DNA from: Bacteroidota bacterium
GTDB lineage: Bacteria; Bacteroidota; Bacteroidia; AKYH767-A; OLB10
Direction of reading: 5' to 3'
DNA: 64,000 nt
Assembly: GCA_016721435.1 (NCBI GenBank)
Contig: JADKIC010000002.1
Location: 193,212-257,211, forward strand
Every line of letters starts with the position of its first letter. Position 1 is the first letter of the stretch. A program made the position numbers and the translations under genes. Below the pieces are notes generated by a model. The model was not told where the DNA came from, did no database searches, and saw only the letters and a list, made by a program, of their open reading frames with translations. Below, piece after piece: positions 10,974 to 63,625 of this stretch.

Positions 10974-10982
10974 TAATGGTAT

Positions 10983-11960: not shown

Positions 11961-11977
11961 AATAAATCATAGATAAA

Positions 11978-26139: not shown

Positions 26140-26151
26140 CAGGCAATAAAT

Positions 26152-28061: not shown

Positions 28062-28064
28062 GTG

Positions 28065-28970
28065 TTATTTTAACCAAAGCGATAAATCCCGCTGAATAAG
28101 TTGTTGCGTTTTGATAATATCTTCTCTGTAAAAATCCTTAAGTTTTTCTTTCAGTTCCGGATCTATGATTAGTTTGTTTTCACCCTGTACAGAGGGCTTC
28201 CTGAATTTGTGCATTATTTTTCTTCTGGTTTTCTCCTCTGTAAAAATGTTAGCGATTGGCTTCAGTAAAGCTTTCACATTTTTATTTTGGAAAATGTATT
28301 TGAACCATAAGTTGTTTTTCTGAGGATCGGAAATATTGTATTTTACAGAAGTATCAGGCGTAAAGGTGTCATTCACCCCGATAAATCGAAACAACTCCTG
28401 CATCGTAGCAACGGGTTGATCGGTTAGGTCTTCCTGTAGTATGACTTTTACCCTGGTAAAATTATTTTGAAATGCAGCAATTCCATCTGCATATAGCCCG
28501 AGTCCTTTGTATTGCCACATAAAATCCCAGTTCAATTCAGCACGATGCGGTTCTTCTTTCAGAGCGGCTTCAAGAGAAAGGTCTTCCTTTTCCAGCCTTA
28601 TAAAATGTTTATACCCGCTAATAAGCCGGGCTACCGGTTGACGTATCACAATGATGATGGGTACATCTCCCAGTGTTTCTTTTATCTGTGGAATAGCTGT
28701 TTTATAGTAATGAAGGTAGCAGGTAGATACTTCGCCTATTGCTCCTCCATCACATTTATGGTAAAGTTGATCATATTGGTCTTTCGTAAAAATAATACGT
28801 GACGGCTCACGTCTTCCGCGGTTATCGTCAGAAGGCTTCTTGTAAAAATCAGCAATAAAGAAGAAAGTTTCCTTCTTAGGGATGCATACTTCCGGATGTT
28901 GTTCCAGATAATAGAACAAGGAAGTTGTTCCGCATTTTGCTACACCTGCTACAAGGAAATTAGGTTTCAT
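28065..28970 (-). CDS. PAPS-dependent sulfotransferase (paralogue 4 of 4, most divergent)
   Basis: VAGVAKCGTTSLFYY. VIRQPVARLISGY. Confidence 0.75.
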   Translation of the reverse strand: MKPNFLVAGVAKCGTTSLFYYLEQHPEVCIPKKETFFFIADFYKKPSDDNRGRREPSRIIFTKDQYDQLYHKCDGGAIGEVSTCYLHYYKTAIPQIKETLGDVPIIIVIRQPVARLISGYKHFIRLEKEDLSLEAALKEEPHRAELNWDFMWQYKGLGLYADGIAAFQNNFTRVKVILQEDLTDQPVATMQELFRFIGVNDTFTPDTSVKYNISDPQKNNLWFKYIFQNKNVKALLKPIANIFTEEKTRRKIMHKFRKPSVQGENKLIIDPELKEKLKDFYREDIIKTQQLIQRDLSLWLK

Positions 28971-30308
28971 TATTGATTATTTGTGGGTATATCCTTAGGC
29001 CGGGGAATTCCGGGCAGATAGATGGAGAGAATCCGAACTTTTTGTATACGTAATAAGCACCTCCAAAGTTCTGAATTATTTTGGCTGTTGCAGAGGAGAT
29101 GGCCGCTCCGTAATTCCAAATTCAGGTACCAGCAAAATGTTCATAGTAATACTGGTGATGGCAGTGATCAGAATGATGATGTTGTATTGCCGCTGATGTC
29201 CGGTCATTTGGAGTAAAATGCCTACGGAACCGGTGATTGTACTAAAGAAATTACCAATGGTGAGGATGATTAATGCTGTACCGGCAGAGATGAATTCATC
29301 CCCAAAGAGTGATAAAATCAGTTCGGGAAAGACGATAATAAGTAGTGTAAAAGGTAAAGTGGCATAAAAGAGTAATCGGGTAGAAGTGTAGATGGATCGC
29401 CGAAGTTTGGAGAGATCATTTTTACTATGGAATTCGGCAAATGTTGGTCCTTGAATGGCATTCATGGCCATCAGTACGACAGCTGAAATGGCGGCTATTT
29501 TAAAAGCCGTATCATAAATTCCAACTTCAGCCTCGGTTCGGTAGATTCCTATAACCAAATTGTCTATCCAATTCAGAATAAAAAAAATAGAACCGGTAAT
29601 CATCATCGGCAATGATTCGTTTACCATTTCTTTCCATGAACCGCTACTTTCCGGTAAGAGCGTTTCTGTGGGGTCGGCGCTGAATCTTCTCCAAGCTATC
29701 ACATAAAAAAACAAGACAATTAAAGAGGAAAATAAGTAACCCATCGCAGGACTTATCGACAAGGAAGCATACCAACTAATAAGGATAAAGAGAACATTTA
29801 GAAGAGGGATAATTGCCCGAAACAAGGTAAATCCTATCATGTTTTTCATTCCCCGGAATGCAGAAGCATGAATATTGATGATCACAAAAGGGGCCAGGGC
29901 AAAGCACATCATCCTTAAATGTTGAGCCAGCTGTGGTTTTCCAAAGAGTTGAACCGCGATAAGGTCCGATGTAAAGTACAGGAGTGCAGATAAGAGGAGG
30001 GAACTGAAAGTTGTAATTTTTAAAGCGGTCTGGAATGCTTTTTTTATCTCGTCGGGTCGATTTCCGGCTTTAGCGGCTGCTACCTTCCGTGTAAGTAGAT
30101 TGTCAAGACCAAGTAATCCAAGTATAGAAAGTAATTGTAAAACAGTGAAAGACAAGGTAAAACTTCCCAATACTCCCGGGCCAAGTAAGCGTGCAACAGT
30201 AAAAACAAATAGGTATTGCGTGATGATCCCTCCCACCTTTACCGTAAGAGCGATACCGCTTTTTTTAAGGAGAAAGTTCGTGTCTTTTCGCGTATTCGGT
30301 ATTTTCAT
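28958..30308 (-). CDS. wzx: Wzx-type polysaccharide flippase (MOP superfamily). C-terminus restored across an apparent frameshift near 29080-29100. The main ORF is 29076-30308.
   Basis: 12-TM topology with the GGIITQYLFVFTVARLLGPGVLG N-terminal motif. An alternate frame continues ...AAISSATAKIIQNFGGAYYVYKKF to a stop overlapping the sulfotransferase start. Confidence 0.65.
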
Positions 30309-35690: not shown

Positions 35691-38600
35691 ATGCAGAAAT
35701 TTATAGTGCTTGTGGTATTGCTATTATCCCTTGGTGAATCCTTTGGTCAGGGTATTGTTCGTGGAAAAGTGACAGATAAGAATGGTGAATCGCTTATTGG
35801 AGTGACGCTGGTTGTAAAGGGCAATACAGCTATAGGTGCAGCTACTGATCTGGATGGTAATTATAGTATTTCAGTGAAGGACAATGCGCCCTTCGTTTTA
35901 GTGGTATCCTATATTGGATTTAATACGCTTGAAGAATCCATTACACTTACCAACAATGCAGTAGTCATCAAGAATTTCACGATGCAATCATCATCTGTTG
36001 AGGTGAAGGAAGTGGAGATATCTGCTAAAGCAGTAAAAGCGGCCGATTATTATATGGAGAATATGAAGAAGCAATCCTCGACGACCATCGACTATGTTTC
36101 TTCTGAAACGATTCGGAAAACCGGTGATAATAGTGTGACTTCTGCCATTTCACGAGTGACCGGTGTTTCAAATACTTCAGCGGGTTTTATAACGGTAAGG
36201 GGTATAGGTGACCGTTATTTGAAGACATCAGTGAATGGTTCGGTGATTCCAACTTTGGATCCTTTTACAAATAATATTAAACTGGATTTTATTCCGGCGA
36301 ACCTGGTAGATAATATCATCATTACAAAAACAGCTTCCCCTGATTTACCCGGAAGTTGGGCAGGGGCCTATGTTTCTATCGAAACAAAGGACTATCCTGA
36401 ACAACTAACCGTCGCTGCAGAAACACAACTTGGCTACAATACGCAAAGTACCTTTCAAAATGTGTTGAGTGGGGAGAGAAGTAATACAGACTGGCTGGGT
36501 TTTGATGATGGTTTTCGGGATCGGACACATGGTGGATTTATTGATTATGTGGCAAGACCTACACAGTTTCAGGAAATGGTTGCACTTGGGTTGGGTAATT
36601 TTTATTTGGGTTTAGGAATTACTCAAAGTTGGGATCCTACCTCACAAGCCGGTATAGATCTGTTTAAATTGGGTCTGTAGAATTGGGCCTCTTAGCACCC
36701 GCATTGATTAATGATCAGGCAGCATTTAATCAGGCTTTGAGTACTTATCAAACAGGGATTAGCGCTGGATGCATTCAGTACAATTAATACACCTGCTTCA
36801 GAGCAGAATAAGAAATTCTCAAACACCTGGCTTATCGGTAAACGAAAGCACCGTTGAATTTTAGTCAGTCTTTTGGAATTGCGAATCAAATTAAGACCGG
36901 AAAGGAAAGTGCACTAGGATTTTTATTTGGATTGAGATATGGAAGCAATGTTCAATATGACAGTGATGCAAAATTGAACCGCTTTAGGTTAGAAGGAAAT
37001 ACTTTTTATTCTACACAGGAATTTACAAAGGAAACCAATAACTGGAGTGCCTTGATGAAACTTTCTTATAAGATTAATCCGAACCACAGTGTAGGTGTTT
37101 TATTTATGCCAAATGTGGGGGGCTCAAATAATCTAAGAACGATAGTCGGTACAGGTATTTTTGAAGATCAACCGGATGCTATTTATTATTCAAATGATCA
37201 GTTCTATGAAGAACGGCAACAATTGATTTATCAGGTAATGTCTGATCATTATCTGCCCTTTGCCAAGGCAAGAATTCATATGGATGCCTCTTATACCGAT
37301 GGTAGCAGTGATATTCCGGATTTTAGAAGTTTGAGTACCTTCTTGTTGAATGGTCAGTTGCTGAGTGGTCTTGGAAATTTGCCGAATACACGTGATTATC
37401 GTTATCTGGGTGAGAATTTGTTTGATTCCCGTTTGTCAATTGAAATTCCTCTGGCGGAAAAACCGGGTAAAAGCCGAAAGATAAAAGTGGGTGGTGCCTA
37501 CACTTATCTCGATCGTGAATTTAATCAGTTCGAATATATTTTAGGGGGAACGGATAGTAGTGGAAATATACTCACAGGTTCCTATCTGATACCGGATAAT
37601 AATATAGAAGCGTTTTTGAATCCTTCTAATTTCGGGGTGCAGTCATATGATTTTCAAGGATTGCCTAAGCGAAGATCCAATACAATTTATATTGAAAATG
37701 ATATTCCCGGGAACAGGACCATTGGCTATAGTGAAGTGATCGCTTATTATGCAATGATTGATTATAGTCTTTCTTATAAATGGCGCGCTTCCGGAGGCCT
37801 ACGTGTAGAACATGCCGACATCTTTGCGGATATTTATGAATACGATAGATTGGGATATGCGCCGGCGATATTCAGGAAAAGCGGAGGGAGATAATTTTCT
37901 GGCGAATCCCGGTATCATTAAAGTCACAAAATTACTTCCCAGTCTGAACATCGTTTATAAGTATCGTGATGATGAATCAAAGTCTATAAATGTTCGGGCA
38001 AACTATAGCCGTACAACAGCCTACCCAAGTATTCGTGAGATTACCGAGAATAATATTCTTGATTTTGAATTACGATCTACTGTCTTTGGTAATTCAACAT
38101 TGAAACCTGCTGATGTAGATAATTTCGACTTGCGTTGGGAAGGATACTTTAAAAATGCCAGTAGCATATCCGTAAGTGCTTTTTATAAGAAGTTTAAAAA
38201 CCATATTGAATTGTTGAATTTTAATGATGCGAACACCTGGACGAACGTAGATGACTCTTACGTGGTAGGATTGGAAGTAGAAGGGGTAAAGAAGCTTACA
38301 AAAAATTTGGAAATCCGGGCCAATGTTGCAGTTATAGAGTCAGAAACAAATGTGATTCTGAAAAGCCGAAAGGATGTAGATGGAGTCATCGTGCTCACTC
38401 CTTATGATACACTAGTCCGTTCTATGTATGGTCAAGCTCCCTTCATTGTAAATGCTATTATCAATTATAATTTTGAAAAAAGCAGAGTGAATGTCGCCGT
38501 TTCTTATAATATTCAAGGGAAGCGACTGGTGATTGCTGCCACTGAGAATGTGCCCGATGTTTATGAAATGCCAAGAAATGTTATTGATTTTAAAATATCA

Positions 38601-38759
38601 AAGCAGTTGGGAAAACACTTTACTACTTCACTTACTGTTAGAGATATATTAAATCAGCCCGTACAACGCAGGTTTGAAACGGAAACAGATGAGAAATTGG
38701 ATTACGATAGCTATCGCTGGGGAACAAGCATCAATTTAGGTTTAACGTATAAACTGTAA
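35691..38759 (+). CDS. TonB-dependent-receptor-like outer-membrane protein (N-terminal carboxypeptidase-regulatory-like domain, plug, 22-strand-barrel-like C-terminus). Two apparent frameshifts (about 36680-36854 and 37812-37894).
   Basis: IVRGKVTDKNGESLIGVTLVVKGNTAIGAATDLDGNYSI (CarbopepD_reg-like). ITVRGIGDRYLKTSVNGSVIP plug motifs. Three consecutive same-strand ORFs. C-terminus GLTYKL. Confidence 0.6.
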
Positions 38760-49266: not shown

Positions 49267-50619
49267 TTAATACTTTTCTTCAATAACTTTTGCCGATGGA
49301 TTCATCTGCTGTATCATTTGACTGAACCATTTACCTGAGTTCTTTACAATGCGTTGCTGCTTTTCATAGTCGATATAGACCAGGCCAAATCTGGGAAAAT
49401 ATCCTTCCGCCCACTCAAAATTATCGGTAAAGGACCATAGGAAATACCCTTTCACTTTCACCCCTTCATTTTTAGCTTTAAGTACTTGTTCAATGTAAGA
49501 TTTCAAGTACGTGATGCGAGGTAAGTCATCTACTTCTCCATTGATCACCTTGTCGGGAAAGGCTGCACCATTCTCTGTTACAATGATAGCATTTACTTCC
49601 TTATATTGATTGAACTGTTTCAAAATATGGTAAATGCCTTCCGGATAAATTTCCCAGTTCATCATAGTGTGGTTCACACGTCTCGATCGCGGATCAATGG
49701 GTTTCGCTTTCAGATAAGGTGTCATCCATGAATGTTTGATAACCTCTCTGGTGTAGTTCTGAATTCCAATGAAGTCGGGAGAGGCAACGAGTAATGCCTC
49801 ATCATCTTTTTTCAAATACTTTTCAATCCTGTTTAGAAAGGGAAGTTCTTTTACAGGATAACCATATCCCAACAAAGGTTCAATGAACAGACGATTGAGC
49901 AAGGCATCTGCTCTTTCAGCAGCAGCTTTATCTTTTAAACGATCTGAATACGGACTCGTCGGGGAACAGGAAAAGGTGGTACCGGCTTGCAGTTGTGGAT
50001 TGAATTGTTTAATTATTTTGATTCCTGCTGCTTGTGCTAAAGCTGCATGATGTGTTGCCGCTAAGAAATTATCCATACCTCTTCGACCCGGTGCATGAAC
50101 TCCTAGAAAATATCCTGCTCCTGTAAATACGAGTGGTTCATTTAATACCATCCAATGTTGAATTCGATCTCCGAGTTTCGAAAGCATCAAGTGAATATAA
50201 TCACTGAACCATTGCACAATATCTCTGTTCGTCCAGCCACCTTTATCTTCCAGCGCTTGTGGAAGATCCCAGTGATATAATGTAGCCCATGGGGTGATGT
50301 TGTTTTCTAAACATTGGTCGGTAAGACGATCATAGAAATCCAGGCCTTTAGGATTTACAGTCCCCTTTCCCTCCGGAAGAACTCTCGGCCAGGCAATGGA
50401 GAATCGGAAATTCGGAATGTGTAAACTTTTCATCAACCTGAGGTCTTCTGCATACCGGTGATAAAAATCGTTGCTGACTTGTGGTGTATGCCGTCCTGCT
50501 ATTTTATTTCTTCCGGCACTAAACGTATCCCAAATGGAAGCTCCTTTTCCATCTAAAAATGCGGCTCCTTCACTTTGTGGAGCGGAAGTGGCAACACCCC
50601 AGTAGAAGTCTTCTTTCAA
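49267..50619 (-). CDS. GH1 beta-glucosidase
   Basis: FYWGVATSAPQSEG N-terminus. LNEP acid/base motif. ITENG nucleophile motif (VTENGAAF). 450 aa. Confidence 0.9.
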   Translation of the reverse strand: MKEDFYWGVATSAPQSEGAAFLDGKGASIWDTFSAGRNKIAGRHTPQVSNDFYHRYAEDLRLMKSLHIPNFRFSIAWPRVLPEGKGTVNPKGLDFYDRLTDQCLENNITPWATLYHWDLPQALEDKGGWTNRDIVQWFSDYIHLMLSKLGDRIQHWMVLNEPLVFTGAGYFLGVHAPGRRGMDNFLAATHHAALAQAAGIKIIKQFNPQLQAGTTFSCSPTSPYSDRLKDKAAAERADALLNRLFIEPLLGYGYPVKELPFLNRIEKYLKKDDEALLVASPDFIGIQNYTREVIKHSWMTPYLKAKPIDPRSRRVNHTMMNWEIYPEGIYHILKQFNQYKEVNAIIVTENGAAFPDKVINGEVDDLPRITYLKSYIEQVLKAKNEGVKVKGYFLWSFTDNFEWAEGYFPRFGLVYIDYEKQQRIVKNSGKWFSQMIQQMNPSAKVIEEKY

Positions 50620-50638
50620 AACGATGGATAGATGATTT

Positions 50639-51706
50639 TTAGGCTGCGATTTCGTTGGTACGAATCAACTTTCTTAAAAATTTTAGTTGTGATTCGAAGT
50701 CTTCATTGGAAGGTTGTTGTCCGGCATGACGATGAATGATTTTATCAAGAAGTTCTCCTGTCTCATCCGGATAATCAACAGGTACAATGGTTTTTTTATT
50801 GAACCAATCTTCCAGTTTATCCATATGTTTTTCCTTTAAACTTTTCATGACAGTTACACCCATCGATTCCAATGTTGACGCATTACAATGTTGCTCAAAC
50901 TGTGTTTTCATAGGGATCACCAAAAGACGTTTGCCAAGATATAAGGCTTCGGAAGTTGTCCCAAATCCGGCATTGGTGATGACTCCCTCTGATTCAGCCA
51001 TACTTTTTATGAAGCTGTCATTGTGAAGGGGTAGTACCCATGTGTTTTTTACGCGATACGCACTTTTGGCTTTCTTACTAAAAAGTTGAAAGGAAAGCCC
51101 TTTATAATTCATCAGGTTTTTTAATACCCGCTGATCTTCATAAGATGGTAAATAGACCGTAAAGTGTTCTTTGTTTTTTATATCCGCCCGGCGTACTGCA
51201 TTACGTATGATGGGAGTATAGATATCCTGATCATATCGCTTAAAGTGGAATCCATAACTGGCCGTACTGGGTGCATAATGTTCAAGGACCATTTTTCCCA
51301 GCCTGTCTTTTGTTTCCGGCATCGGAGCCAGCGGATGTAATGTTGCCACTTGATTGCTCAACCCGATGCACGTTTTTCTTTTTAACTGACAAGCCCAGGA
51401 AGAGACCGGCTCAAAATCACTAATCACGAGGTCATAGTCTTCAACAGGTAATCTTTTTATTTCGTTGAAGAGTTTCAATGTATCCAGTTTCAGGTAAGTC
51501 CTCAATATATCTACTCCTCCTTTTTTACCAAATACAAATCCCAATCCATGGTAACGGTACTTTACTTCGAATGGTAGAGTCAGTTCCCATTGTGAGGCAC
51601 TGACCAGCACATCCACTTCAGCGCGCTTCTTTAATAAGGGAAGTATCTCCAGCGCCCTGCTGATATGGCCATTGCCTGTTCCCTGAATGGCGTAAAGTAC
51701 TTTCAT
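50639..51706 (-). CDS. GT-B fold glycosyltransferase (MurG/GT28-like, MJ1255-type)
   Basis: N-terminal GTGNGHISRA glycine-rich motif and C-terminal ITNAGFGTTSEALYLGKRLLVIP donor-binding region. Confidence 0.55.
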   Translation of the reverse strand: MKVLYAIQGTGNGHISRALEILPLLKKRAEVDVLVSASQWELTLPFEVKYRYHGLGFVFGKKGGVDILRTYLKLDTLKLFNEIKRLPVEDYDLVISDFEPVSSWACQLKRKTCIGLSNQVATLHPLAPMPETKDRLGKMVLEHYAPSTASYGFHFKRYDQDIYTPIIRNAVRRADIKNKEHFTVYLPSYEDQRVLKNLMNYKGLSFQLFSKKAKSAYRVKNTWVLPLHNDSFIKSMAESEGVITNAGFGTTSEALYLGKRLLVIPMKTQFEQHCNASTLESMGVTVMKSLKEKHMDKLEDWFNKKTIVPVDYPDETGELLDKIIHRHAGQQPSNEDFESQLKFLRKLIRTNEIAA

Positions 51707-52659
51707 CGTTTTGTGGTAATGGTTATGGCTTTCTCTGAGTAAATTTCTTCTAAGAGGATATTGAAAAGTTGCTTGTTGTTAAGGAGTACAAAATCGGTGG
51801 TGGATGATTCTTCGACTGTCGATTCGTGATTTTTATTTAACGGATGATGGTATAAATTCCATGTTCCTTCGTTGTATTCTAAGGAAGTTAAATTTTCTAT
51901 CCAATCTCCGGAATTCAGGTACTGCACGGTTCCTTCTGCATTGCTGATTTCCTTTATTTCCGGTTGATGGATATGTCCACAGATAACATAATCGTACTTG
52001 TTCCGGATGGCAATTTCAGCACATACTTTTTCAAAGTTGTTGATGTATTTCACTGCACTCTTTACACCGTTCTTGATTTTTTTGGAAAGTGAGATTTTTC
52101 CTTTTCCCATTTTTTCCATGAAGTAATTTACTGTGGCATTAATTAAAATAAGCAGATCATATCCTATCGCTCCAAGTTTGGTCAGCCATTTTGCATTCTG
52201 CATGGTGATATCAAAAACATCTCCATGAAATATCCAGGCTTGTTTACCATCCAGTTCCAATAGCATCTTATTGCTTATTCTCAGGTTGCCTAAATGAAAT
52301 CCCGAAAATTTGCGCAGTAATTCATCATGGTTTCCCGTGATATAATGTACAGGAACGCCTTTGGAAGCAAGACTGATGATTTCCTTCACGACCTGCATAT
52401 GTGATTTCGGAAAATAGTTTTTACTGAACTGCCACATGTCTACGATGTCTCCGTTCAAAATGAGCATACCGGGATTTATGGATCGCAAATAGGAGGAAAG
52501 TTCTGCGGCATGGCAACCATAGGTGCCTAAATGAATATCCGATATAACTACAACTTCTACGGGTCTGCGCGATTCAGCTATCTGGCCGTTGATCTTCAAA
52601 AATAGGAGGGGTTTTGAAGGTGGCTGTTGGCCATGTACAGATGATTCATTCTTAACCAA
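51703..52659 (-). CDS. Calcineurin-like metallophosphoesterase (LpxH-like)
   Basis: VVISDIHLG ... LNGDIVD ... ITGNHDE ... GHIHQP metallophosphatase motifs. Confidence 0.7.
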   Translation of the reverse strand: MVKNESSVHGQQPPSKPLLFLKINGQIAESRRPVEVVVISDIHLGTYGCHAAELSSYLRSINPGMLILNGDIVDMWQFSKNYFPKSHMQVVKEIISLASKGVPVHYITGNHDELLRKFSGFHLGNLRISNKMLLELDGKQAWIFHGDVFDITMQNAKWLTKLGAIGYDLLILINATVNYFMEKMGKGKISLSKKIKNGVKSAVKYINNFEKVCAEIAIRNKYDYVICGHIHQPEIKEISNAEGTVQYLNSGDWIENLTSLEYNEGTWNLYHHPLNKNHESTVEESSTTDFVLLNNKQLFNILLEEIYSEKAITITTKR

Positions 52660-52846
52660 AGCAATCGAAACCGATAAATGGCGAGTTGTTCGATCAACGC
52701 TTGAATCAAAGGTTTTACTCGTACAGGGTGGACCTTGTTTTTCACGTTACAATTTTACATCCGTAACGTTAGTTTAATATTGCGGGAATATTACCATTTC
52801 TTTAAGAAGCTCATCACATAGTCATTTCCGACTAAACTACCCTGTA

Positions 52847-52905
52847 TAACGGTAATGGGATACCTAATTAACGGTAATGGCATACCTAATTAACGGTAAT
52901 GAATA
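52847..52905. repeat. 2.7 copies of the 22-bp tandem unit TAACGGTAATGG(G/C)ATACCTAAT
   Basis: Read directly. Confidence 0.8.
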
Positions 52906-53037
52906 TCCGTGGAAGCCTATTCAAATACAAATTGAAAGAGGATCCGGATCTGCACAAGATGATAGTGATGGCCATTAAAATTCGTTTAAGAAATAAAACT
53001 ATGCCCGTTTAATGAAAACAACCTGGTGAAAATATGA

Positions 53038-53230
53038 GTACCCTTCACCCATTCGTACCCTTCGTACCCTTCACCCATTCGTACCCCTCGTACCCTTCAC
53101 ACATTCGTACCCTTCGTAAATTCGTACCCTTCGTACATTCGTACATTCGCCTATTTCGCGAATTCGTCCATATGTAATTCGTATATTCGTATTCTCGCCC
53201 GGCGGGCGAGATCTATTCGTAAATTCGTAA
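53038..53230. repeat. Degenerate tandem array of TTCGTAC / CCCTTCGTA units (about 20 copies). Includes the 19-bp perfect palindrome TCTCGCCCGGCGGGCGAGA at 53194-53212.
   Basis: gtacccttcacccattcgtacccttcgtacccttcacccattcgtacccctcgtaccc...attcgtaaattcgtaacc read directly. Reverse-complement relation to 5607-5655. Confidence 0.8.
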
Positions 53231-53241
53231 CCGCTGCTCTT

Positions 53242-54060
53242 TTACTGAACGATAAACCAGGGATTCAACAATTCACTTTTATTATATACCACGGCAGATT
53301 GATCGTTAGCATTGATGACTGAATAACCTGCACTGAGTGCGATCGCCTGTCCTGCCGCCGTATCCCATTCCATAGTAGGTGCAAAGCGGGGATAGACATC
53401 TGCAGCCCCTTCTGCTACAAGGCAAAGTTTAAGGGAACTTCCTTTTGATATCATTTCAAGGTTGGTGTGCTTTTTCCGGAGTTCGTTTATAAAAGCCGCT
53501 GTTTCATCGCTCATATGTGAACGACTGGCTACTACTGTAAAGGGGCGGTCTGTATTTTTTATCGGCAAACGATGACCCGCTGAAATCAGACGATCAGCAA
53601 TATGCTCCGACTGTATAATATGACTCAGGTATTCATAATCGGCTTCCGCTTTGTAGCTGCCACTTCCCTCGCAACCAAAATAGATGGTATCAATCACAGG
53701 AGCATAAATTACTCCCAAAAGTGGTACTCCATTCACAATAAGCGCAATGTTTACGGTGAACTCGCCATTTCTTTTGATAAATTCCTTAGTACCATCCAAC
53801 GGATCGATCAGCCAGAAAATTTTCCATTTATGGCGTTCCTCAAAGGGAATACTTTTTCCCTCCTCACTCAATAAGGGCAATCCGGACTCCGTCAATAATT
53901 CTACAATCTTATTATGCGATCGCTTATCCGCTTCAGTTAACGGACTTTTATCATCCTTTAATTCTACTTCAAATTCGCGTTTATAAACGTCCTTGATTTC
54001 CTTTCCGGCAAGTACAGCTGCTTTTAATGCAAGCGATAAAAGTTGATTATAATTTTCCAT
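53242..54060 (-). CDS. cysQ: 3'(2'),5'-bisphosphate nucleotidase (PAP phosphatase, inositol-monophosphatase fold)
   Basis: WLIDPLDGTKEF and the VVYNKSEL C-terminal region typical of CysQ. Adjacent to cysN/cysD/cysC. Confidence 0.8.
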   Translation of the reverse strand: MENYNQLLSLALKAAVLAGKEIKDVYKREFEVELKDDKSPLTEADKRSHNKIVELLTESGLPLLSEEGKSIPFEERHKWKIFWLIDPLDGTKEFIKRNGEFTVNIALIVNGVPLLGVIYAPVIDTIYFGCEGSGSYKAEADYEYLSHIIQSEHIADRLISAGHRLPIKNTDRPFTVVASRSHMSDETAAFINELRKKHTNLEMISKGSSLKLCLVAEGAADVYPRFAPTMEWDTAAGQAIALSAGYSVINANDQSAVVYNKSELLNPWFIVQ

Positions 54061-54102
54061 AACAATAGTTGTTTTGAAGCAAAAGCCTCGAATAGTCAGG
54101 TA

Positions 54103-55377
54103 TTATACGATCATACCCGCGCCAACGGTTTCATTTGTGGCTTCATCAATGAAAATAATACTGCCTGTATGTCTGTTTTTCCGATAGGAATCAAAGAATA
54201 TCGGAGCCGTCGTTTTTATCTGAATTCTTGCAATGTCATTCATTACAATTTCCTTGTCTTCTTCATCACGATGCAAGGTGTTGATATCAATTTTATAACG
54301 AATGTCTTTAATGATACAACGGGTGTCTTTAGAAGTATGGCGAATGCCGTATTTACCGCCCACCTGTATTTTATCAGGATGTAACCAGCAGACCATCACA
54401 TCAAACTCTTGAGCAATATTTGGAACGTTGTTTTCACGGACAATCATATCACCTCTGCTGATATCTACTTCTTTGTCCAGTGTCATGGTTACGGACATAG
54501 GTGCATAAGCTTCTTCATATTTATCCCCAAAAAGTTCAATGGTTTTGATAACAGCCGACTCCCCTTTAGGTAGAATTTTTACTTTATCACCGGGCTTAAA
54601 GATGCCACTCATGATCCTTCCGGCATAACCTCTGAAGTCATGGTGTTCGGTTTGCTGTGGTCTTACAACATATTGTACCGGAAAACGGCAATCAATATGG
54701 TTCTCATCGCTGCTGATGTGTAAATTTTCGAGCAGATACATCAATGTCGGACCCTGGTACCAGGACATGTTCGATGATTTATCCACCACGTTATCGCCTT
54801 TCAATGCACTAATGGGAAGGAAGTGGACATCTTTAATATCAAGTTTAGAGGAGAGATGTCGAAACTGATCGACGACTTTATCAAAACTCTTTTCGTTAAA
54901 TTCTACCAGATCCATTTTATTTACACAAATAATCAAGTGAGGAATCTGCAGTAAAGAAGCGATAAAGGAATGCCGTATAGTTTGCTCTAAGACACCTTTT
55001 CGGGCATCTACAAGAATGAGTGCAGCGTTGGCGGTAGAAGCACCGGTAACCATATTACGTGTATATTGAATATGTCCGGGTGTATCTGCAATAATAAATT
55101 TTCGCTTGGGAGTTGCAAAGTAGCGGTAGGCCACATCGATAGTAATGCCCTGCTCGCGTTCCGCTTTCAGACCATCCACCAGCAAACTTAGATCTACGTG
55201 CTCAAACCCTCGCTGCTGACTGCGTTGTTCAATGGCTTCCAGCTGATCTTCAAAAATTTGCTTGGAGTCAAAAAGTAACCGGCCAATTAATGTACTTTTT
55301 CCATCATCTACACTTCCTGCTGTCGTAAACCGAAGCAGTTCCATGTTCATATATCCTTCTGTGCTAAAATCACTCAT
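54103..55377 (-). CDS. cysN: Sulfate adenylyltransferase subunit 1 (GTPase)
   Basis: GSVDDGKSTLIGRLL G1 motif. DTPGH. NKMD. Domain order of CysN. Confidence 0.9.
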   Translation of the reverse strand: MSDFSTEGYMNMELLRFTTAGSVDDGKSTLIGRLLFDSKQIFEDQLEAIEQRSQQRGFEHVDLSLLVDGLKAEREQGITIDVAYRYFATPKRKFIIADTPGHIQYTRNMVTGASTANAALILVDARKGVLEQTIRHSFIASLLQIPHLIICVNKMDLVEFNEKSFDKVVDQFRHLSSKLDIKDVHFLPISALKGDNVVDKSSNMSWYQGPTLMYLLENLHISSDENHIDCRFPVQYVVRPQQTEHHDFRGYAGRIMSGIFKPGDKVKILPKGESAVIKTIELFGDKYEEAYAPMSVTMTLDKEVDISRGDMIVRENNVPNIAQEFDVMVCWLHPDKIQVGGKYGIRHTSKDTRCIIKDIRYKIDINTLHRDEEDKEIVMNDIARIQIKTTAPIFFDSYRKNRHTGSIIFIDEATNETVGAGMIV

Positions 55378-55434
55378 GTTCTGTTTTTCTGTCTAAATTC
55401 GTGTATACTATTATTTTCTTTAATTGGCTAACTG

Positions 55435-56335
55435 TTAAAAATAACCGGCTTTTTTACGATCTTCCATTGCCGTTTCACTCCGTTTATCGTCAGCTCTTGT
55501 TCCTCTTTCAGTGGTTTTGCTGGCGGCGACCTCGTCAATGATTTCGGAGAGACTTGATGCAGGTGATAATACGGCTCCTGTGCAGGTCATGTCTCCTATG
55601 GTTCTGAAGCGAACGGTCATTTCTTCAATCGTTTCGTTATCGCGTACCGTTATAAAGTCAGACATAGCGAGTAGCATACCTCCTCTGTCAACAACATTTC
55701 TTCTATGCGAAAAATAGAGATTAGGAATGGCAATATCTTCCAGAGCGATGTACATCCATACGTCCATTTCGGTCCAGTTACTCAGCGGGAAAATGCGAAA
55801 GTGTTCGCCCATTTGTTTTTTACCATTGAGCAGCATCCAAAGTTCAGGACGTTGATTTTTCGGATCCCACTGACCAAATTCATCCCGATGAGAAAAGAAA
55901 CGTTCCTTCGCTCTTGCTTTTTCCTCATCTCTTCGTGCTCCGCCCATGGCTGCATCCACTTTTAATTCTTCCAGTGCATCCAGTAAGGTGACAGTCTGTA
56001 GCATATTCCGGCTGGCATTGGGTCCTTTTCTTTAGCACGTCCTCGTTGATCGAGTCCTGTACATTTCGAACGATGAGTGTTGCGCCAATTTTCGCAACAA
56101 GTTCATCCCGGAAACTAATGGTTTCAGGAAAATTATGTCCGGTATCAATGTGAAGCAATGGAAACGGAATACGGGCAGGGTAAAAGGCTTTGCGGGCCAG
56201 ATGAGTCATGACAATAGAGTCCTTCCCTCCGGAAAATAACATCGCCGGGCGCTCAAATTGTGATGCGGCTTCCCGTATGATATAGATGGCTTCTGCTTCC
56301 AGTTCACGCAGATGGTTTAAATGATAGAGAATCAT
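55435..56335 (-). CDS. cysD: Sulfate adenylyltransferase subunit 2 (PAPS-reductase-fold). Apparent frameshift near 55925-56004.
   Basis: [21 protein letters not shown]-loop in ORF 55925-56335. The C-terminal half lies in ORF 55435-56004. Confidence 0.85.
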
Positions 56336-56338
56336 TTT

Positions 56339-56937
56339 TTATATTGATTTAATTCTGTTTAACGTAAAGTTGAGTATTTGGTTCGTGCAGGTTTCCAGGT
56401 CATCCTTATCGGTATGTACTGTTATTTCTGCATGTTCCGGGGCTTCGAAGGGAGAGGAGATGCCGGTGAAGTCCGGAATTTCTCCGCGGCGTGCTTTGCA
56501 TAGAGACCTTTCACATCTCTTTGTTCACATACTTCCAAAGGACAATCCACAAAAATTTCCGTAAACTCTCCTTCAGGAAGCAGTTGTCGTACCCTGTCGC
56601 GATCCTCCTTAAAAGGGGAAATAAAGGCCGTCAAAACAATGATACCGGCGTCAATGAATAATCGGGCTACTTCGCCGATGCGACGGATGTTTTCTTTCCG
56701 TCCTTCTTCACTGAAATCGATATTGCTGTTCAATCCATGACGAATATTATCTCCGTCCAATAAATAAGTTTTGTAACCTTTTACGTGCAATTCCTGTTCA
56801 ACACGGTCGGCCAATGTAGATTTTCCGGAACCACTAAGTCCGGTGAACCACAATAGCAAGGGCTTTTGTTGTAACAACGTTTGCCTGTCATCACGTGTGA
56901 TTTTATACTGCTGACGAACGATATGACTGCTTTTCAT
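56339..56937 (-). CDS. cysC: Adenylyl-sulfate (APS) kinase. C-terminus restored across an A3-to-A4 homopolymer deletion near 56470.
   Basis: LLWFTGLSGSGKSTLA P-loop. Corrected tail ...[56 protein letters not shown]. Confidence 0.85.
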
Positions 56938-56947
56938 GATATTTTAT

Positions 56948-58727
56948 TCATATAAGGTTATACCATGAAGCGATCCCGAAGATGGTACAGGCCATGTAAA
57001 TGAAGGTAGGTATTATTCCAAATTTAATATAGTCAATAAATTTATAACCGCCGGGTCCAAATACCATCAAATTGGTTTGATAACCGAATGGAGTAATAAA
57101 ATCGGCTGAACTGGCAAACGCAATCGTCAGAAGAAAGGGATTGAAATCCTGAATCCCTAATTGCTGACCGGTGGCAAGTGCAATCGGAAAGGTGATCGCA
57201 ACTGCTGCAGCGTTGGTAACAAACATGGTCAGAATATTTGTAATCAGATAGAGTCCAAGTAAGATGCCCATTGTCGGATGCAATGTTGCCGTTAAGTTGA
57301 TTACTTTATTGGCAAAAAGCTGATCAGCGCCCGAGTTAGAAATGGCTTTGCCAACTCCAATGGCCAGGGCAAGCATGACCATCAATTCAAGGTCAAGTGA
57401 TTTTTTTACATCCTCAACAGTAAGCGAGCCGATGATAGCTAAACCGCCGGTGATAAGGAAGAGTGACATAAACAAACTCACCATGTTGGTTGCTTCAAGA
57501 ATAAAAGCACCTAGAATAGCCAGCAACAACCATTTGATGATACTCTTGTGAGCATGATTGATTTCCTTCTTTTGAGACCAGGATAAGATCCCGATTTTGC
57601 TCTGATCGTCTTCTGAATTGCTTACCCGCTACTACCAATAAGAGGTCGCCGTTCCTTAATTCAATTTCACCAACTTTTCCACTGATCTTTTCTCCATCAC
57701 GGTTTACAGCAATAATACCGGCGTCAAAAGTTTCACGAAAATTGGTTTTGTTGATGGGTTTATTAATCAAGGATGAATTGGGTGCTACGATGACTTCAAT
57801 AATCTCCACTTTGCCATCCATCGGATATTCTGAATAATCGGCATGGATTAATTCCGTTTGATTATTCAACAAATCAATGACAGTATCCGTTTCACCTGCA
57901 AAAATTAAAACATCATCGGTTTGAATGATCTCCTTGGGGGAGACCGGTGCTATGGTTTTCTGACCCCTGATGATTTCTACAACATAGAGTCCACGCAGTT
58001 GACGAAGTTTATTGTCATCGAGCGATTTTCCCACATAGGTAGAGGTAGAGGGAACTTTGGTTTCAATCAAATATTCTCTAACGTGTTCTTTGAATTCTGT
58101 GAGGGCATCAGTGCGGTTGGTTAGAAATTTATTACTGAAAAATGTAATGTACAACACCAGAATGATCATTATGGGCAATCCAATTGGTGTGAATGAAAAC
58201 ATATTTAATGGTTGTAGCCCTGCATCCGTAGCGAGTCCACTTACAACTAAATTAGTGGAGGTGCCAATCAAAGTCACCGTCCCTCCAATGATCGCCGCCA
58301 TGGAAAGGGGCATGAGCACTTTAGAAGGACTGATTTTTTTTCGCTTTGCCCATTCATACACATAAGGGATCATCAATGCGACAAGCGGTATGTTGTTAAC
58401 AAAGGCGGATAGACTGGCTACTGAAGTGCTCATTCTGAAAAGAAAGGCCCGATAGGATAAACCGGGTTTGAATAAGCGGTAGATAGAATAATCCAATGCG
58501 GCAGATCGTTTAATGACATCGCTGATAATCAATAAAAGAAAAATGACAGCAATCTGTTCATTCGCGAAACCACTCAATGCCTCCTTTGGGTTTATGATAT
58601 GAGTGGCCATTAAAACCGTAATTGCAAGAACAAATACCATCACCGGTTTCACAACTTCCTTATAAAGTGCTACTACCATGCCCAGAATGACCAGGCTGAC
58701 AATTAGTATTTGCGCATTTTCAAACAT
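56948..58727 (-). CDS. SLC13/DASS-family anion (sulfate) symporter with central TrkA_C (RCK_C) domains. Apparent frameshift near 57495-57530.
   Basis: Two ORFs (57495-58727 and 56948-57529). Membrane repeats flank two cytoplasmic domains (...VEIIRGQKTIAPVSP..., ...VEIIEVIVAPNSSLINKPI...). First gene of the cys operon. Confidence 0.7.
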
Positions 58728-59261
58728 GAGTAGAACAGTTGGAAAAATAAGTGAACAATTTGAAACGAAGCAATCGGCTTGTCGTATTTTGCTTTAACAG
58801 AGAGGCTTTCAAAACGGTCATTAGACCGGTTAGGTGTGGATAGTTTCTGAAAAGTTGAATTTTATACGGACGCAGTGGCCATGCAAAACATACGGCTCTT
58901 GAACGATCTGTTTTTACATCACCCTCATTTCTAGTATAAAAGGAAGTGCTAAAATAAAAACGGTTGCATTCACGCCTGGAAGTGAAATTATCATCACGTG
59001 AAAGAGAACCGGCTGAATTTAATCCACCGACAACCAGGTATAGTAAACAGGAATTCATATTGAATAAATATGCCTTTAATACGCACCCTGCTTTGTTTTG
59101 GTTTGGAAAAGAAGAGCGTGTATGGCGATGCGAAGTTAATGATGTATTACCTGTTTAAAGTAAAATAACATAGTCTTTCCTTTCGTTTAAAGTGTAATTT
59201 GACCTGTTCAGAGGTAAAAATGAACAGTATTAATGCTGTTTTTACCGGAAGGATCTAATAT

Positions 59262-59921
59262 TTGAATAATTTAGACAAGATAATGGACGAGGAGTGTATT
59301 TCAGTTTCAGAAATGATTAAATCAAAAATCCTTAATTCGCTGGATGGCTGTAAACGCCTGGTTTTGTTTTATAATATATTTGTAATCAGTATTTTAATGT
59401 CGTTTCAGGCCTATTCACAACCGGTTACTCAGTATTTTATCCAGAATTCTACCATTCGCTTCGTGTCGAATGCCAGTTTGGAACGAATTGAAGCGGTATC
59501 TACTGACCTGAGAGGGATTATTGATATTTCTTCTAATTCATTCGCTTTCAGTGTCAATAATACTTCATTTAGAGGCTTTAACAGTCAGCTGCAGGAAGAG
59601 CATTTTAATGAAAATTACCTGGAGTCCGGAAAATATCCGAAATGTACATTTAGCGGGAAAATCATAGATAATATAGATTTTAGCAAGGATGGGACCTATA
59701 TAATCAGGGCTAAGGGAATTTTGAATATCAAAGGGATCGGCCAGGAACGGATAATCAAAAGTTCCATTGCCATAAAAGGAAAAGAAGTCTTTATATCCTG
59801 TGAATTTTTAATTCTATTGGCTGATCATGAAATCCGTATACCACGTATAGTGCAGCAAAAAATTGCTCCTGAAATCGAAGTCAGCATTCAGGCGAAATTG
59901 TTTGGAGGGGAAAAGCAATGA
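59262..59921 (+). CDS. Secreted YceI-like domain protein (tentative)
   Basis: Signal-like segment. Beta-rich domain with FVSNASLERIEAVSTDLRGIIDISSNSFAFSV resembling YceI-family proteins. Weak. Confidence 0.35.
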   Translation: MNNLDKIMDEECISVSEMIKSKILNSLDGCKRLVLFYNIFVISILMSFQAYSQPVTQYFIQNSTIRFVSNASLERIEAVSTDLRGIIDISSNSFAFSVNNTSFRGFNSQLQEEHFNENYLESGKYPKCTFSGKIIDNIDFSKDGTYIIRAKGILNIKGIGQERIIKSSIAIKGKEVFISCEFLILLADHEIRIPRIVQQKIAPEIEVSIQAKLFGGEKQ

Positions 59922-62816
59922 AATATATAGCATTCATTTGCTTTTTTCTTTTGATGAGGTTATCATCCTATAGTCAGCATCCTTTTTTTAGAGAAATTAC
60001 TATTGAACAGGGTAATGATGATTTAAAGGCGACGACGCTTTTTCAGAGTGATGAAGGATTGATTTATATTGGAACAAATCAGGGATTGTATAGATATGAT
60101 GGATTTGAATTTGAAAAAATCGTATTGCCGGATTCATTGCAAAATAGTAAAGTCAGTATTATTACAAGTTCTCTAAACAAGGATTTAATTATTGGACTTG
60201 AAAATGGAGTGATTTTTAAACTCAAGAACGATGTAGTAGAGAAGTTAAAATCTCCAATAAACAGTCCGGTCAAGTCTATATTGGAATTGGAGAACGGTAC
60301 TCTTTGGATCGCTTCATATGGAGAAGGTGTTTTTTATAGAACCGGATCCGATTGGCATCGGTTGGCCGGACTCTCTGACCCTTTCGTTTATCAACTTCTT
60401 CTTCATAACACCGGTAAAATTCTTGCCGCAACCGATGGTGGTCTTGTGATTATTGACCCGCAAACTAAACCGGTTAGTTTCCGGGTTTTTGATAGAAAAA
60501 CGGGTTGCCCGACAATATTGTGAAGGTGATGGGAGTGCTGCCTGACAATACTATTCTACTGGGTTTTCATCAAATGGGCATTGCTGTTTTTGACATGAAT
60601 TCTTATCAGTTCAAATCCATTGATAAAGCGAAAGATTGGACATTTGGTGTTGTCAATTGTATTACCAAATTGCAGAATGAATTTTGGCTGGGTACAGATG
60701 GTAATGGAATTGTGGATTATGAATTTAGCGGAGATAAACGTATTCGCAATTTTTTTGATAAAGCCGGCTTCCCGTTTAAAAAAAGTAAATGCTTTGTTGA
60801 AGGATATGGAAGGGAATGTTTGGGTTGCTGCTGATCATAAATTGATTATTTCAATTGGTGAGCAAGTCGAACTTGTAGATGAAGTGGGGAGCTGAATTTT
60901 GATAGCCTGCAAGCCATTATTGCAGGGAGAGATGGATATTTATCGTTTAGTACTCCGAAAGGATTGTTTCGATACAACTATATGGCTTCCGGAAATGAGA
61001 AAATGAAGAGATTTAATTTCTCAAAGAACGTAGATTTACATATCGTATCCCTTTACGAAGATGAAGCCGGGTATATTTGGATCGGAACCTTCGACAACGG
61101 ATTGTTTCGATTTAATCCTGAAAATGGAAAAGTAGTGCGTTTTGGCGAGAAGGAAGGGTTGACAAATGCAAATGTTATTTCAATTGATGGAAAAGATAGT
61201 GTGGTTTGGATTGCTACATCGGGAGGGATAGTCCAGTGCAGAATGAAAGACCCTCTTCAGTTTGGAAAAGATGCCGGCTATTCATTTGAGAAACTAATGT
61301 TTGATGATAAACGATTTGATGGTTTCGTTTATGCTGTTTTTATTGATAGAAATGGGAGAGCCTGGTTTGGTACAGATGGAAATGGAATTATGATGTATGA
61401 TGGCAGTAAACTCCACTCCTTTCCGGAATTAAACTCTTTTAAAGTGGTGTACTCCATTACTGAAGATGCTTATAGCAATATTTGGTTTAGTACTCAGTTT
61501 CAGGGTTTGTATAGATATGATGGCAAACATTTTCGCAATTTTAATCTTTCCAATGGCTTATCCTCACTGGAAATTATCGGGATTAGTATAGACAATATCG
61601 GAAATGTTATTGTTGTCAATAAACGCGGTATTGATGTTATTAATCCGAAAAATTTCGATGTTAAAAAAATTGGGGAAGAATCTGGTATTGGAAAGTTAGA
61701 TGCTGATTTGAATGCAGTAACCCGTGACAGTAAAGGGGGCATCTGGATTGGTTCACGGAATGGTTTGGTGCGTTTCTATAATTATAATAAAGGGGTGACG
61801 GATCGTCCTAAACTTATCCTCAAAAAAGTGTATACTTTTATGAAGCAGATGGTAGATCTCCGTGATACAGTTTTTGACTATAATCAAAATAATATTTCTA
61901 TTGAGTATACCGGAATTTGGTATACTCAACCGGATATTATTTCTTATCGTTATCGTTTAAAGGGATATAGCAATGACTGGATTCCCACTCGAGATAGAAT
62001 CGTTACATTTCCTAACTTACCTCCCGGTCGTTACACTTTTGAAGTGGTGGCAAGCCTGGGTGTTCAATCTGTAAGTAGTAATGTTGTAGCATATAGCTTT
62101 ATAATCAAGAAGCCGCTGTGGAAAGAGAATTGGATTATATTGTCAGGAATTTTGTTGTTAAGTTCAGGGGTGTTTTTATTTATTCGCGACCGGGATATTA
62201 AAGTCCGGCGATTGGAAAGTTTAAAGAAAGAGAAGGTGGAGTATCAATTTGCTACCTTGAAAAGCCAGGTGAATCCACATTTTTATTCAATAGTTTTAAT
62301 ACATTGATTGCGATTGTATAAGAGGATAAAGAGAAAGCAATCAGTTATGTAGAAAAGTTATCGGATTATTTCCGGAACATGGTTCAACATCGGGATAAGG
62401 ATCTGATTTCACTCGAAGAAGAACTGGTTATGGTGGAAACTTATTATTTTTTGCAGCAAAAGCGTTTTGGAGAGTATTTATTACTGGAAATAGATATTCC
62501 TGTTTCCTGGAAAAAGTCATTTGGGCTTCCTCCATTGTCACTGCAACTGTTGATTGAGAATGCCGTGAAGCACAATGCCGTTTCGCATGAAACGCCCTTG
62601 CGCATTCTGGTGAAAGCTTCAGGCTCCTCTTCCCTCCTCATTGAAAATAACCTGAACCCAAAAATGTCTGCTGAGCCATCTACCGGTATCGGATTGGAGA
62701 ATATTATAAACAGGTTTAATATATTGGCTGGTCATAAGGTGAAAGTACTTCAAACCGCCGAAAAATTCACCGTTGAAGTGCCGCTGATAGAACTCGTTTC
62801 ATCGCAACGCATTTGA
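59918..62816 (+). CDS. Hybrid-type sensor histidine kinase of the LytS/YehU class: periplasmic two-component-regulator-propeller/Y_Y_Y repeats, TM, His_kinase (PF06580) and HATPase. Fragmented into 5 ORFs by apparent frameshifts.
   Basis: Repeated GLxRYDG / IWIGT / WFGT propeller motifs (59918-62307). TM region ILSGILLLSSGVFLF. C-terminal LLIENAVKHNA ... ATP-binding region (62379-62816). Partner LytTR regulator is immediately downstream. Confidence 0.6.
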
Positions 62817-62866
62817 TGCATATATCAGGAAATGTAATTAAGTGTATTCTAAAAAAATAAAGCAAA

Positions 62867-63625
62867 ATGAAAATATTAATCATTGAAGATGAAAAGCCCG
62901 CAGCTGATCGTTTAATCAAAATGATACACGATTTGGTTCCGGAAGCCGTAATCCTTGCAACACTCGTAAGTATTAAGTCTTCGGTGGAGTGGTTGATGAA
63001 AAATGATGCACCGGATGTGGTAATGATGGATATCCATTTAGCTGACGGGCAAAGTTTTGAGATATTTACATTGGTGAAAGTGACCGCCCCGGTTATTTTT
63101 ACCACGGCATATGATGAACATGCTCTGGATGCATTTAAGGTAAATAGTATCGATTATCTCCTTAAGCCGATTAAGCTGGAAGATTTAAAGCGTGCCATCG
63201 ATAAGCTGAAAAATCTTAAAAATTATAACGCACAGCAGGTGGAAAAGATGATCAGTCAGTTTGGCGCTCGTCAAAAGGAATTTCAGAAAAGAATGGTCAT
63301 TCGTTTTGGAGATACCATTAAGATGGTGGACATCCCGGATGTGGCCTACTTCTATACGGAAGATAAAATCAATTATCTCTGCACCTCCGGTAACCTTCGT
63401 TATCCTATTGACCATAATCTGGATGAATTGGAACTTCTGCTAGATCCGGCTGTGTTTTTCAGAATTAATCGACAATTTATTATAAATATTCATGCCATTG
63501 ATAAAATGCTGGCCTGGTCTAAATCGCGTGTAAAAGTGCTCCTTAAACCCCCTACAACAGAAGACACTATTGTAAGTACAGAGCGATCTCCTTATTTTAA
63601 GGATTGGCTTATCGGGTTGAAATGA
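62867..63625 (+). CDS. LytTR-family response regulator (REC + LytTR DNA-binding domain)
   Basis: MKILIIEDEKPAADRL...DVVMMDIHLADG receiver. C-terminal LytTR domain (IRFGDTIKMVDIPDVAYFYTEDKINYLCTSG). Confidence 0.9.
   Translation: MKILIIEDEKPAADRLIKMIHDLVPEAVILATLVSIKSSVEWLMKNDAPDVVMMDIHLADGQSFEIFTLVKVTAPVIFTTAYDEHALDAFKVNSIDYLLKPIKLEDLKRAIDKLKNLKNYNAQQVEKMISQFGARQKEFQKRMVIRFGDTIKMVDIPDVAYFYTEDKINYLCTSGNLRYPIDHNLDELELLLDPAVFFRINRQFIINIHAIDKMLAWSKSRVKVLLKPPTTEDTIVSTERSPYFKDWLIGLK

Follow-up and report, generated by a model that had tools for sequence, protein, structure and literature searches.

Does the sulfate-activation operon at positions 53242-58727 of the DNA studied here make 3'-phosphoadenosine 5'-phosphosulfate (PAPS) for sulfotransferases, or is it the first half of an assimilatory pathway? 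The operon lies in a 64,000-nucleotide stretch of a Bacteroidota bacterium (contig JADKIC010000002.1, positions 193,212 to 257,211), which is referred to below as the window and whose numbering is used throughout. We consider it probable that the five co-directional genes form a supply line for activated sulfate whose prime clients belong to a Wzx/Wzy polysaccharide locus in the same window, and that the frameshifts which interrupt some of these genes are errors of the assembly.

Gene order and gene families

The genes of the operon are, in this order, an SLC13/TrkA_C permease, cysC, cysD, cysN, and cysQ. All are located on the minus strand, and they extend from the ATG of the permease at 58727 to the final base of the cysQ stop codon at 53242. 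This arrangement had been proposed in a first-pass annotation of the DNA and was borne out by the listing of open reading frames (ORFs) and by family assignments with Pfam and NCBIfam. For these assignments, the curated cutoff of each model was applied, and repaired proteins were scored where the reading frame is broken. The reading frames of the permease, cysC, and cysD are in fact not open in the window as given, which the first-pass annotation had overlooked; the breaks are analyzed further below. As read from the sequence, the intergenic spacers are 10 nt (permease/cysC), 3 nt (cysC/cysD, after repair of the frame), 57 nt, and 42 nt. An overlap of cysC with cysD, as had been claimed, is contradicted by the numbers then given for it: the TAA of cysC occupies 56341-56339 and the ATG of cysD begins at 56335, leaving the spacer of 3 nt. 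The position assigned to this stop codon is correct if a missing base near 56497 is restored; the cysC ORF as given already ends at 56422.

The first gene (56948-58727) encodes, after repair, a putative sulfate importer of 593 residues, namely an SLC13/CitMHS-type anion permease with two central TrkA_C domains, which passes the Pfam thresholds for CitMHS, Na_sulph_symp, and TrkA_C. The product of cysC (56339-56937), an adenosine 5'-phosphosulfate (APS) kinase, has 199 residues after repair and contains the P-loop GLSGSGKST; it scores 289.6 bits with NF003013 (TIGR00455 family; cutoff 163) and covers model positions 4-193 of 202, and the truncated ORF alone reaches 235.4 bits. The small subunit of sulfate adenylyltransferase is encoded by cysD (55435-56335). 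Its repaired product of 301 residues carries the PP-loop SGGKDS and scores 431.8 bits with TIGR02039 (cutoff 396.6), 453.1 with NF003587 (cutoff 195), and 424.3 with NF009214 (cutoff 413). The GTPase subunit of the same enzyme, the product of cysN (54103-55377), is intact, consists of 424 residues, and lacks a fused kinase domain; the motifs G1 (GSVDDGKST), G3 (DTPGH), and G4 (NKMD) are present, and the scores are 569.6 bits with TIGR02034 (cutoff 336.1) and 596.3 with NF003478 (cutoff 590). Finally, cysQ (53242-54060) is an intact gene for a 3'(2'),5'-bisphosphate nucleotidase, that is, a phosphatase of 3'-phosphoadenosine 5'-phosphate (PAP). The protein of 272 residues reaches 273.9 bits with TIGR01331 (cutoff 228.8) and shows the inositol-monophosphatase-type motifs DPLDGT and WDTAAG. 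An identical CysQ protein occurs in a 97% identical strain, the nucleotide differences being all synonymous. With permease, cysC, cysD, cysN, and cysQ in one direction, the operon has the gene complement by which a PAPS-supply cluster is defined here.

The presumed consumers of PAPS are four sulfotransferases, also encoded on the minus strand, whose earlier assignment to 25261-28970 was confirmed by domain matches: ST4 (28065-28970), ST3 (27108-28061), ST2 (26152-27120), and ST1 (25261-26139). All four combine a Sulfotransfer_1/3 domain with the 5'-phosphosulfate-binding motif (K-x-G-T-T) and the 3'-phosphate-binding motif (R-x-P-x-x-R-x-x-S-x-Y), which read GVAKCGTT and RQPVARLISGY in ST4. 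The sulfotransferase genes are placed between a Wzx-type flippase (Polysacc_synt/MatE; 29076-30308), which heads the block, and a Wzy-like polymerase (Wzy_C; 23967-25250) downstream, both identified by Pfam and both on the same strand. This placement fits a cytoplasmic sulfation of the lipid-linked repeat unit.

In the pathway that we propose, the permease would import sulfate, which CysD and CysN, as assigned by family, would convert together with ATP to APS, the reaction being driven by GTP hydrolysis. CysC would then phosphorylate APS to PAPS. The sulfotransferases, with the four enzymes at 24-30 kb as prime candidates, would consume PAPS by decorating the repeat unit in the cytoplasm prior to flipping, and CysQ would hydrolyze the inhibitory by-product PAP to AMP.

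Related loci

For comparison, we compiled 80 related loci and considered a neighbourhood of 10 kb. The sequence identity of CysN to the protein of the window is 93%, 89%, and 86% for the loci L001, L002, and L003, respectively, which come from three related species, L001 representing the closest one. In L001, wzx comes directly after cysQ on the same strand and precedes ST4-ST3-ST2-ST1; these four sulfotransferase genes are orthologues with 73-78% identity (75% in the case of ST4) and have the order seen in the window. The block of wzx and sulfotransferase genes starts about 0.5 kb downstream of cysQ, and the 23-kb block that separates both loci in the window is absent from L001, such that the two are contiguous there. 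L002 and L083, a contig described below, keep the arrangement of the window downstream of cysQ; in L002 and L003 a different sulfotransferase gene is found immediately upstream of the permease.

The distribution of two genes among the 80 loci is informative with respect to the fate of APS. In 66 loci cysC adjoins cysDN, and all five genes of the operon occur together in 15. Window-like sulfotransferases were found in the neighbourhood of 11 loci, each of which possesses cysC (11/11). A separate cysH lies next to cysDN in five loci, and cysC is absent from all of these (5/5). Within this related group, cysC thus marks the PAPS-producing version of the cluster and cysH the APS-reducing version. 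CysI or CysJ was not found near cysDN in any of the 80 loci, and a separate cysH, cysI, or cysJ was found within 10 kb of none of the 66 cysC-containing ones. Hits of CysH in tblastn searches of L001, L007, L009, L010, L015, and L026 were rejected: in these cases, the CysH of E. coli matched CysD, which belongs to the same PAPS_reduct superfamily.

Sulfation or assimilation

The first-pass annotation had pointed out that the operon contains APS kinase and PAP phosphatase while cysH and sulfite reductase are absent, and this holds for the 64-kb window. A tblastn search with CysH, CysI, and CysJ of E. coli detected no homologue in the window, and Pfam scans of its main ORFs (most of them of at least 120 residues, fragments of split genes included) detected neither a PAPS_reduct domain other than that of CysD nor an NIR_SIR domain. 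It had further been argued that this gene content is the signature of a PAPS-for-sulfation pathway. That argument does not stand, as in E. coli, too, cysDNC is located apart from cysJIH, and cysQ is needed there for assimilation; this is why it is weak evidence by itself that the window has no gene for CysH or sulfite reductase. The conclusion drawn from it is nevertheless supported on other grounds, which are the synteny in L001-L003, the distribution of cysC and cysH, and published precedent. Taken together, these comparisons support the view that the operon supplies PAPS to the sulfotransferase/polysaccharide locus.

Several observations weigh against this view. In the window itself, the nearest sulfotransferase gene is 24 kb away from the operon rather than adjacent to it, and PAPS or APS may also feed assimilation. 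In addition, two loci (L041 and L053) have the gene order cysH-cysD-cysN-permease-cysQ and lack cysC; they are apparently clusters of the APS-reductase type. Since both combine the permease and cysQ with cysH, neither gene is exclusive to clusters of the PAPS type.

These two loci, the layout in E. coli with its need for cysQ, and the fact that the search for cysH and sulfite reductase covers the 64-kb window only are the arguments for the alternative that survives best: the operon might mainly or additionally constitute the first half of assimilatory sulfate reduction, with a PAPS reductase encoded elsewhere and the sulfotransferases sharing the pool. We consider this alternative unlikely. 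The E. coli system draws on the same enzyme families (CysD, CysN, CysC, and CysQ) and arrives at PAPS by the same chemistry; it differs in that PAPS is reduced by CysH and CysIJ, none of which is encoded in the window or beside the related cysC-containing loci. Those loci that do have cysH lack cysC and thus represent the APS-reductase route. Moreover, the direct contiguity with wzx or sulfotransferase genes in L001, L002, and L003 argues for sulfation. The same is true for the leader of the operon, the non-coding region between a divergent yceI-like gene and the permease (58728-59261, minus strand), which would contain the promoter. No match was obtained when the whole window was scanned against Rfam at gathering thresholds, so the leader contains no S-adenosylmethionine or other riboswitch.

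Comparison with known systems

A supply of PAPS to sulfotransferases encoded nearby has been described before. In Bacteroides thetaiotaomicron, the putative PAPS biosynthetic cluster BT_0411-0415, of which BT_0412 is the proposed sulfate importer, adjoins the cholesterol sulfotransferase BT_0416 (PMC9417993). We liken the two systems by the description in that paper and not by sequence: they belong to the same phylum, and in both cases genes for PAPS synthesis and for a proposed sulfate importer accompany a PAPS-dependent sulfotransferase. The immediate neighbourhood of sulfotransferase and permease in L002 and L003 corresponds to this layout. In contrast, the acceptors of the single Bacteroides enzyme are cholesterol and other steroids, whereas the window has four sulfotransferases, which are part of a Wzx/Wzy locus at a distance of 24 kb.

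Some clusters for sulfated capsules and exopolysaccharides have a cysNDC copy of their own. Such a second copy, in combination with sulfotransferases in the capsule locus, has been termed a hallmark of the synthesis of sulfated polysaccharides, as exemplified by the capsule cluster of Vibrio sp. KMM 8419 (PMC11641403). In this cluster, as in the case considered here, genes for PAPS synthesis and sulfotransferases reside in or next to a polysaccharide cluster. Clusters of the KMM 8419 type originate, however, from marine Gammaproteobacteria and rely on ABC-transporter (Kps) export, and the KMM 8419 cluster itself is reported with cysN, cysD, and cysC; the locus in the window is of the Wzx/Wzy type, and its operon additionally contains the permease and cysQ.

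Further sulfate-activation modules that feed PAPS to a sulfotransferase are rhizobial NodP/NodQ with NodH, mycobacterial CysDNC with Stf, and Xanthomonas RaxPQ with RaxST. In these modules, ATP sulfurylase and APS kinase are likewise dedicated to a sulfotransferase and not to assimilation; the acceptors are the Nod factor, glycolipids, and a peptide. They differ from the operon of the window in that the kinase forms part of CysN/NodQ; in the window, CysN is without a kinase domain and the APS kinase has a gene of its own, cysC. A permease or cysQ is not known to belong to any of the three modules.

As BT_0411-0416 and the clusters for sulfated capsules have been published, the operon is of a kind already described. 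Its own features are the separate cysC, the permease, and cysQ within one operon; by inference, it differs from the described clusters also in serving a Wzx/Wzy locus with four sulfotransferases. The synteny ties the PAPS operon to this locus and thereby suggests that an uncultured lineage of Bacteroidota produces a sulfated extracellular polysaccharide. Among bacteria, sulfated polysaccharides are relatively uncommon; they are of interest for biotechnology (PMC11641403). To a more far-reaching proposal we assign somewhat less than an even chance: the joint product of both loci might be a polysaccharide with up to four sulfated positions, synthesized by a non-marine, non-cyanobacterial member of the Bacteroidota, with the PAPS being supplied by way of a dedicated SLC13/TrkA_C sulfate importer. 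If this were true, the permease would represent an uncharacterized class of bacterial sulfate transporters, and the heavily sulfated polymer would be unusual among bacterial glycans. The current understanding of sulfur metabolism is left unchanged by these findings.

The substrate of the permease

The assignment of sulfate to the permease follows from gene context only, and four points speak against it: the best Pfam match is CitMHS; the repaired protein of 593 residues scores 94.5 bits with the DASS model TIGR00785, which is below the cutoff of 198.6; relatives are labelled di/tricarboxylate transporter by some sources (the NCBI name being SLC13 family permease); and our search found no experimental proof of the substrate for any member of the SLC13/TrkA_C permease family. 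The transport of another anion, for example a di- or tricarboxylate, or the export of a sulfated product would be compatible with these points. We nevertheless regard such a function as quite improbable, given the contexts in which the gene is encountered. Of the 80 loci, 20 have the permease gene at a distance of at most 10 kb from cysDN, and its order relative to the sulfate-activating genes is kept in Bacteroidota. Among the 20 are the cysH-type loci L041 and L053, which contain no sulfotransferase. In the Aquificota member Desulfurobacterium indicum (L084, MOEN01000001.1), the gene for an SLC13/TrkA_C permease with 46% identity precedes cysC and the gene for an ATP sulfurylase of the non-homologous Sat type (PF01747); due to this arrangement, the linkage of the permease with sulfate activation crosses phyla and sulfurylase types. 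A further homologue is situated between cysC-cysD-cysN and cysQ, and the Bacteroides counterpart was also proposed to be a sulfate importer (PMC9417993). Sulfate would be the simplest common denominator of all these contexts. The recurrent position of this family beside sulfate-activating genes makes it a simple target for transport assays.

Frameshifts in the window

The sulfate-supply reading requires that the three interrupted genes are functional in the organism. The permease is split into ORFs at 57495-58727 (410 residues) and 56948-57529 (193 residues), which are deposited at NCBI as MBL0095399.1 and MBL0095398.1, the former being annotated on a contig of 266,904 nt from a metagenome-assembled genome. 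The two parts of cysD are 55925-56335 and 55435-56004. Compared with L001-L003, the window is short of two, one, and five bases at the respective sites of the permease, cysC, and cysD. If these are restored, uninterrupted proteins of 593, 199, and 301 residues result, and CysC and CysD then match the curated models end to end.

A protein search with the repaired permease returned an intact protein of 593 residues (P0001) that matches it from end to end with 99% identity. P0001 is encoded on L083, a 13-kb contig with 97.2% identity to positions 62428-49352 of the window. Exact-protein look-ups with CysN, the truncated CysC, and the 410-residue permease fragment of the window returned no contig; only CysQ and P0001 gave loci. 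On L083 the operon is intact, with products of 593, 197, 301, 424, and 272 residues. The comparison with this contig located the breaks precisely. In the permease, A5 is shortened to A4 at about 57569 and G3 to G2 at about 57566, only three bases apart; in cysC, A4 is reduced to A3 at about 56497; in cysD, G3 is reduced to G2 at about 56042 and four bases of AAAGAGGAAAAGGG are lost at 56025-56028. All coding indels relative to L083 are length changes of one base in or beside a short homopolymer, some of them clustered within a few nucleotides.

For the five genes from the permease to cysQ, the comparison with L083 gives ratios of non-synonymous to synonymous substitution rates (dN/dS) of 0.10, 0.036, 0.00 (32 synonymous and no non-synonymous changes), 0.013, and 0.025, and there are no nonsense changes. 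Purifying selection has therefore acted strongly on the seemingly broken genes over essentially the whole divergence of the strains. Furthermore, the permease gene is intact in three conspecific assemblies (MBK7886362.1, MBK9402779.1, and a JGI copy), and a fourth one has it interrupted at another residue, in pieces of 340 and 230 residues.

Other genes of the window are interrupted, too. The Y_Y_Y sensor histidine kinase upstream of the operon (59918-62816, plus strand) is in at least four pieces. Relative to L083, where this gene is likewise unbroken, a single base is inserted or lost at each of the breaks (62284, 60889, 60784, and 60495), and three of these breaks lie in homopolymer runs; the changes are A6 to A5, C5 to C4, T6 to T7, and the loss of an A beside a T5 run at about 60495. 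L083 was used for this analysis because gaps relative to L001-L003 (67-69% nucleotide identity) were too noisy. Two ORFs (194 and 203 residues) also make up dxr (5815-6980, minus strand), an essential gene of the methylerythritol phosphate pathway, owing to a one-base shift in the GGAAAAAAAGAGGGG run (A7/G4) at about 6396-6426. A GT4 glycosyltransferase gene of the polysaccharide locus (21416-22587, minus strand) is split in two, and a gene for a TonB-dependent receptor (35691-38759, plus strand) is in three pieces.

The split dxr is the clearest sign of homopolymer errors in the assembly of this contig. Based on dxr, the intact L083, the homopolymer sites, the low dN/dS values, and the conspecific permease genes, which are intact or broken elsewhere, we judge the frameshifts to be very probably artefacts and the operon of the organism to be intact. 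Long-read sequencing is the most likely source, as homopolymer indels are the typical error of Nanopore assemblies without adequate polishing (PMC9262707). Judging by the accession series, the metagenome-assembled genome may stem from a long-read project on activated sludge. The uneven distribution of the breaks does not favour this explanation: they are denser at 55.4-62.3 kb than in the rest of the window, and cysN, cysQ, and the region at 49-53 kb have no coding indel relative to L083. Both this concentration and the mere presence of the breaks in the sequence as given would suit the opposite assumption, according to which the permease, cysC, cysD, and the histidine kinase have recently become pseudogenes in this strain, leaving a defunct PAPS pathway and no local supply of the donor for the sulfotransferases; in view of one-base changes at short homopolymers, the absence of nonsense changes, the same damage to dxr, and repaired fragments that give end-to-end model matches, we consider it highly improbable. 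Phase variation by slipped-strand mispairing was rejected as a cause: with 3-6 nt the runs are short, several indels lie within a few bases of one another, and the breaks affect many unrelated genes, among them dxr. Note that, owing to the frequent homopolymer frameshifts, the apparent pseudogenes on this contig, including dxr, should not be taken as biology.

The divergence between the window and L083 is a mosaic over 49352-62428: it is about 0.3% at 57750-60750 and 5-12% at 60750-61500 and at 53000-53500. This pattern suggests recombination tracts within the population.

Flanking DNA and further observations

The leader of the operon, with a length of 535 nt, is 100% identical in the window and L083. 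Its interpretation as a conserved element was rejected because the identity lies within the 3-kb tract of low divergence belonging to the recombination mosaic. In the region at 52.6-59.4 kb, a scan for sigma-70 promoters and terminators, which does not cover the promoters of Bacteroidota, yielded no more sites than shuffled sequence. Within the leader, at 58999-59058 on the minus strand, an ORF of 112 residues begins with MNSCLLYLVVGGLNSAGSLS. This segment resembles the N-terminus with the PAPS-binding loop of the sulfotransferase found at the same position in L002 and L003 (MNSGLPNLIIGGVHKAGTTS); the similarity is weak (20 residues, E-value 0.15 against the window), and the segment may be a relic of the N-terminus of a fifth sulfotransferase.

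Divergently oriented genes at 59262-63625 (plus strand) code for a YceI-like protein, the Y_Y_Y/Reg_prop histidine kinase, and a LytTR response regulator. They are located upstream of the operon in all close relatives (L001-L003 and L083), and a regulatory link to the operon is possible. Just downstream of cysQ, tandem repeats with units of 8, 17, and 26 nt occupy 53038-53149 (and 52847-52901); they are TACGAAGGG-like on the minus strand and preceded by the GC-rich hairpin TCTCGCCCGCCGGGCGAGA. The window, L081, and L083 have different numbers of copies.

The 23-kb block between the operon and the polysaccharide locus (30400-53200) encodes proteins sorted by the type IX secretion system (Por_Secre_tail), the TonB receptor, a Fib_succ_major protein, a DUF6544 protein, a GH1 enzyme, a glycosyltransferase, and a metallophosphoesterase. 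At the other end of the window, the genes at 10593-13448 (plus strand) specify a rhodanese, an ArsP-type permease, a second rhodanese-domain protein, and a DsbD_2 membrane protein; this cluster may play a role in sulfur or thiol handling.

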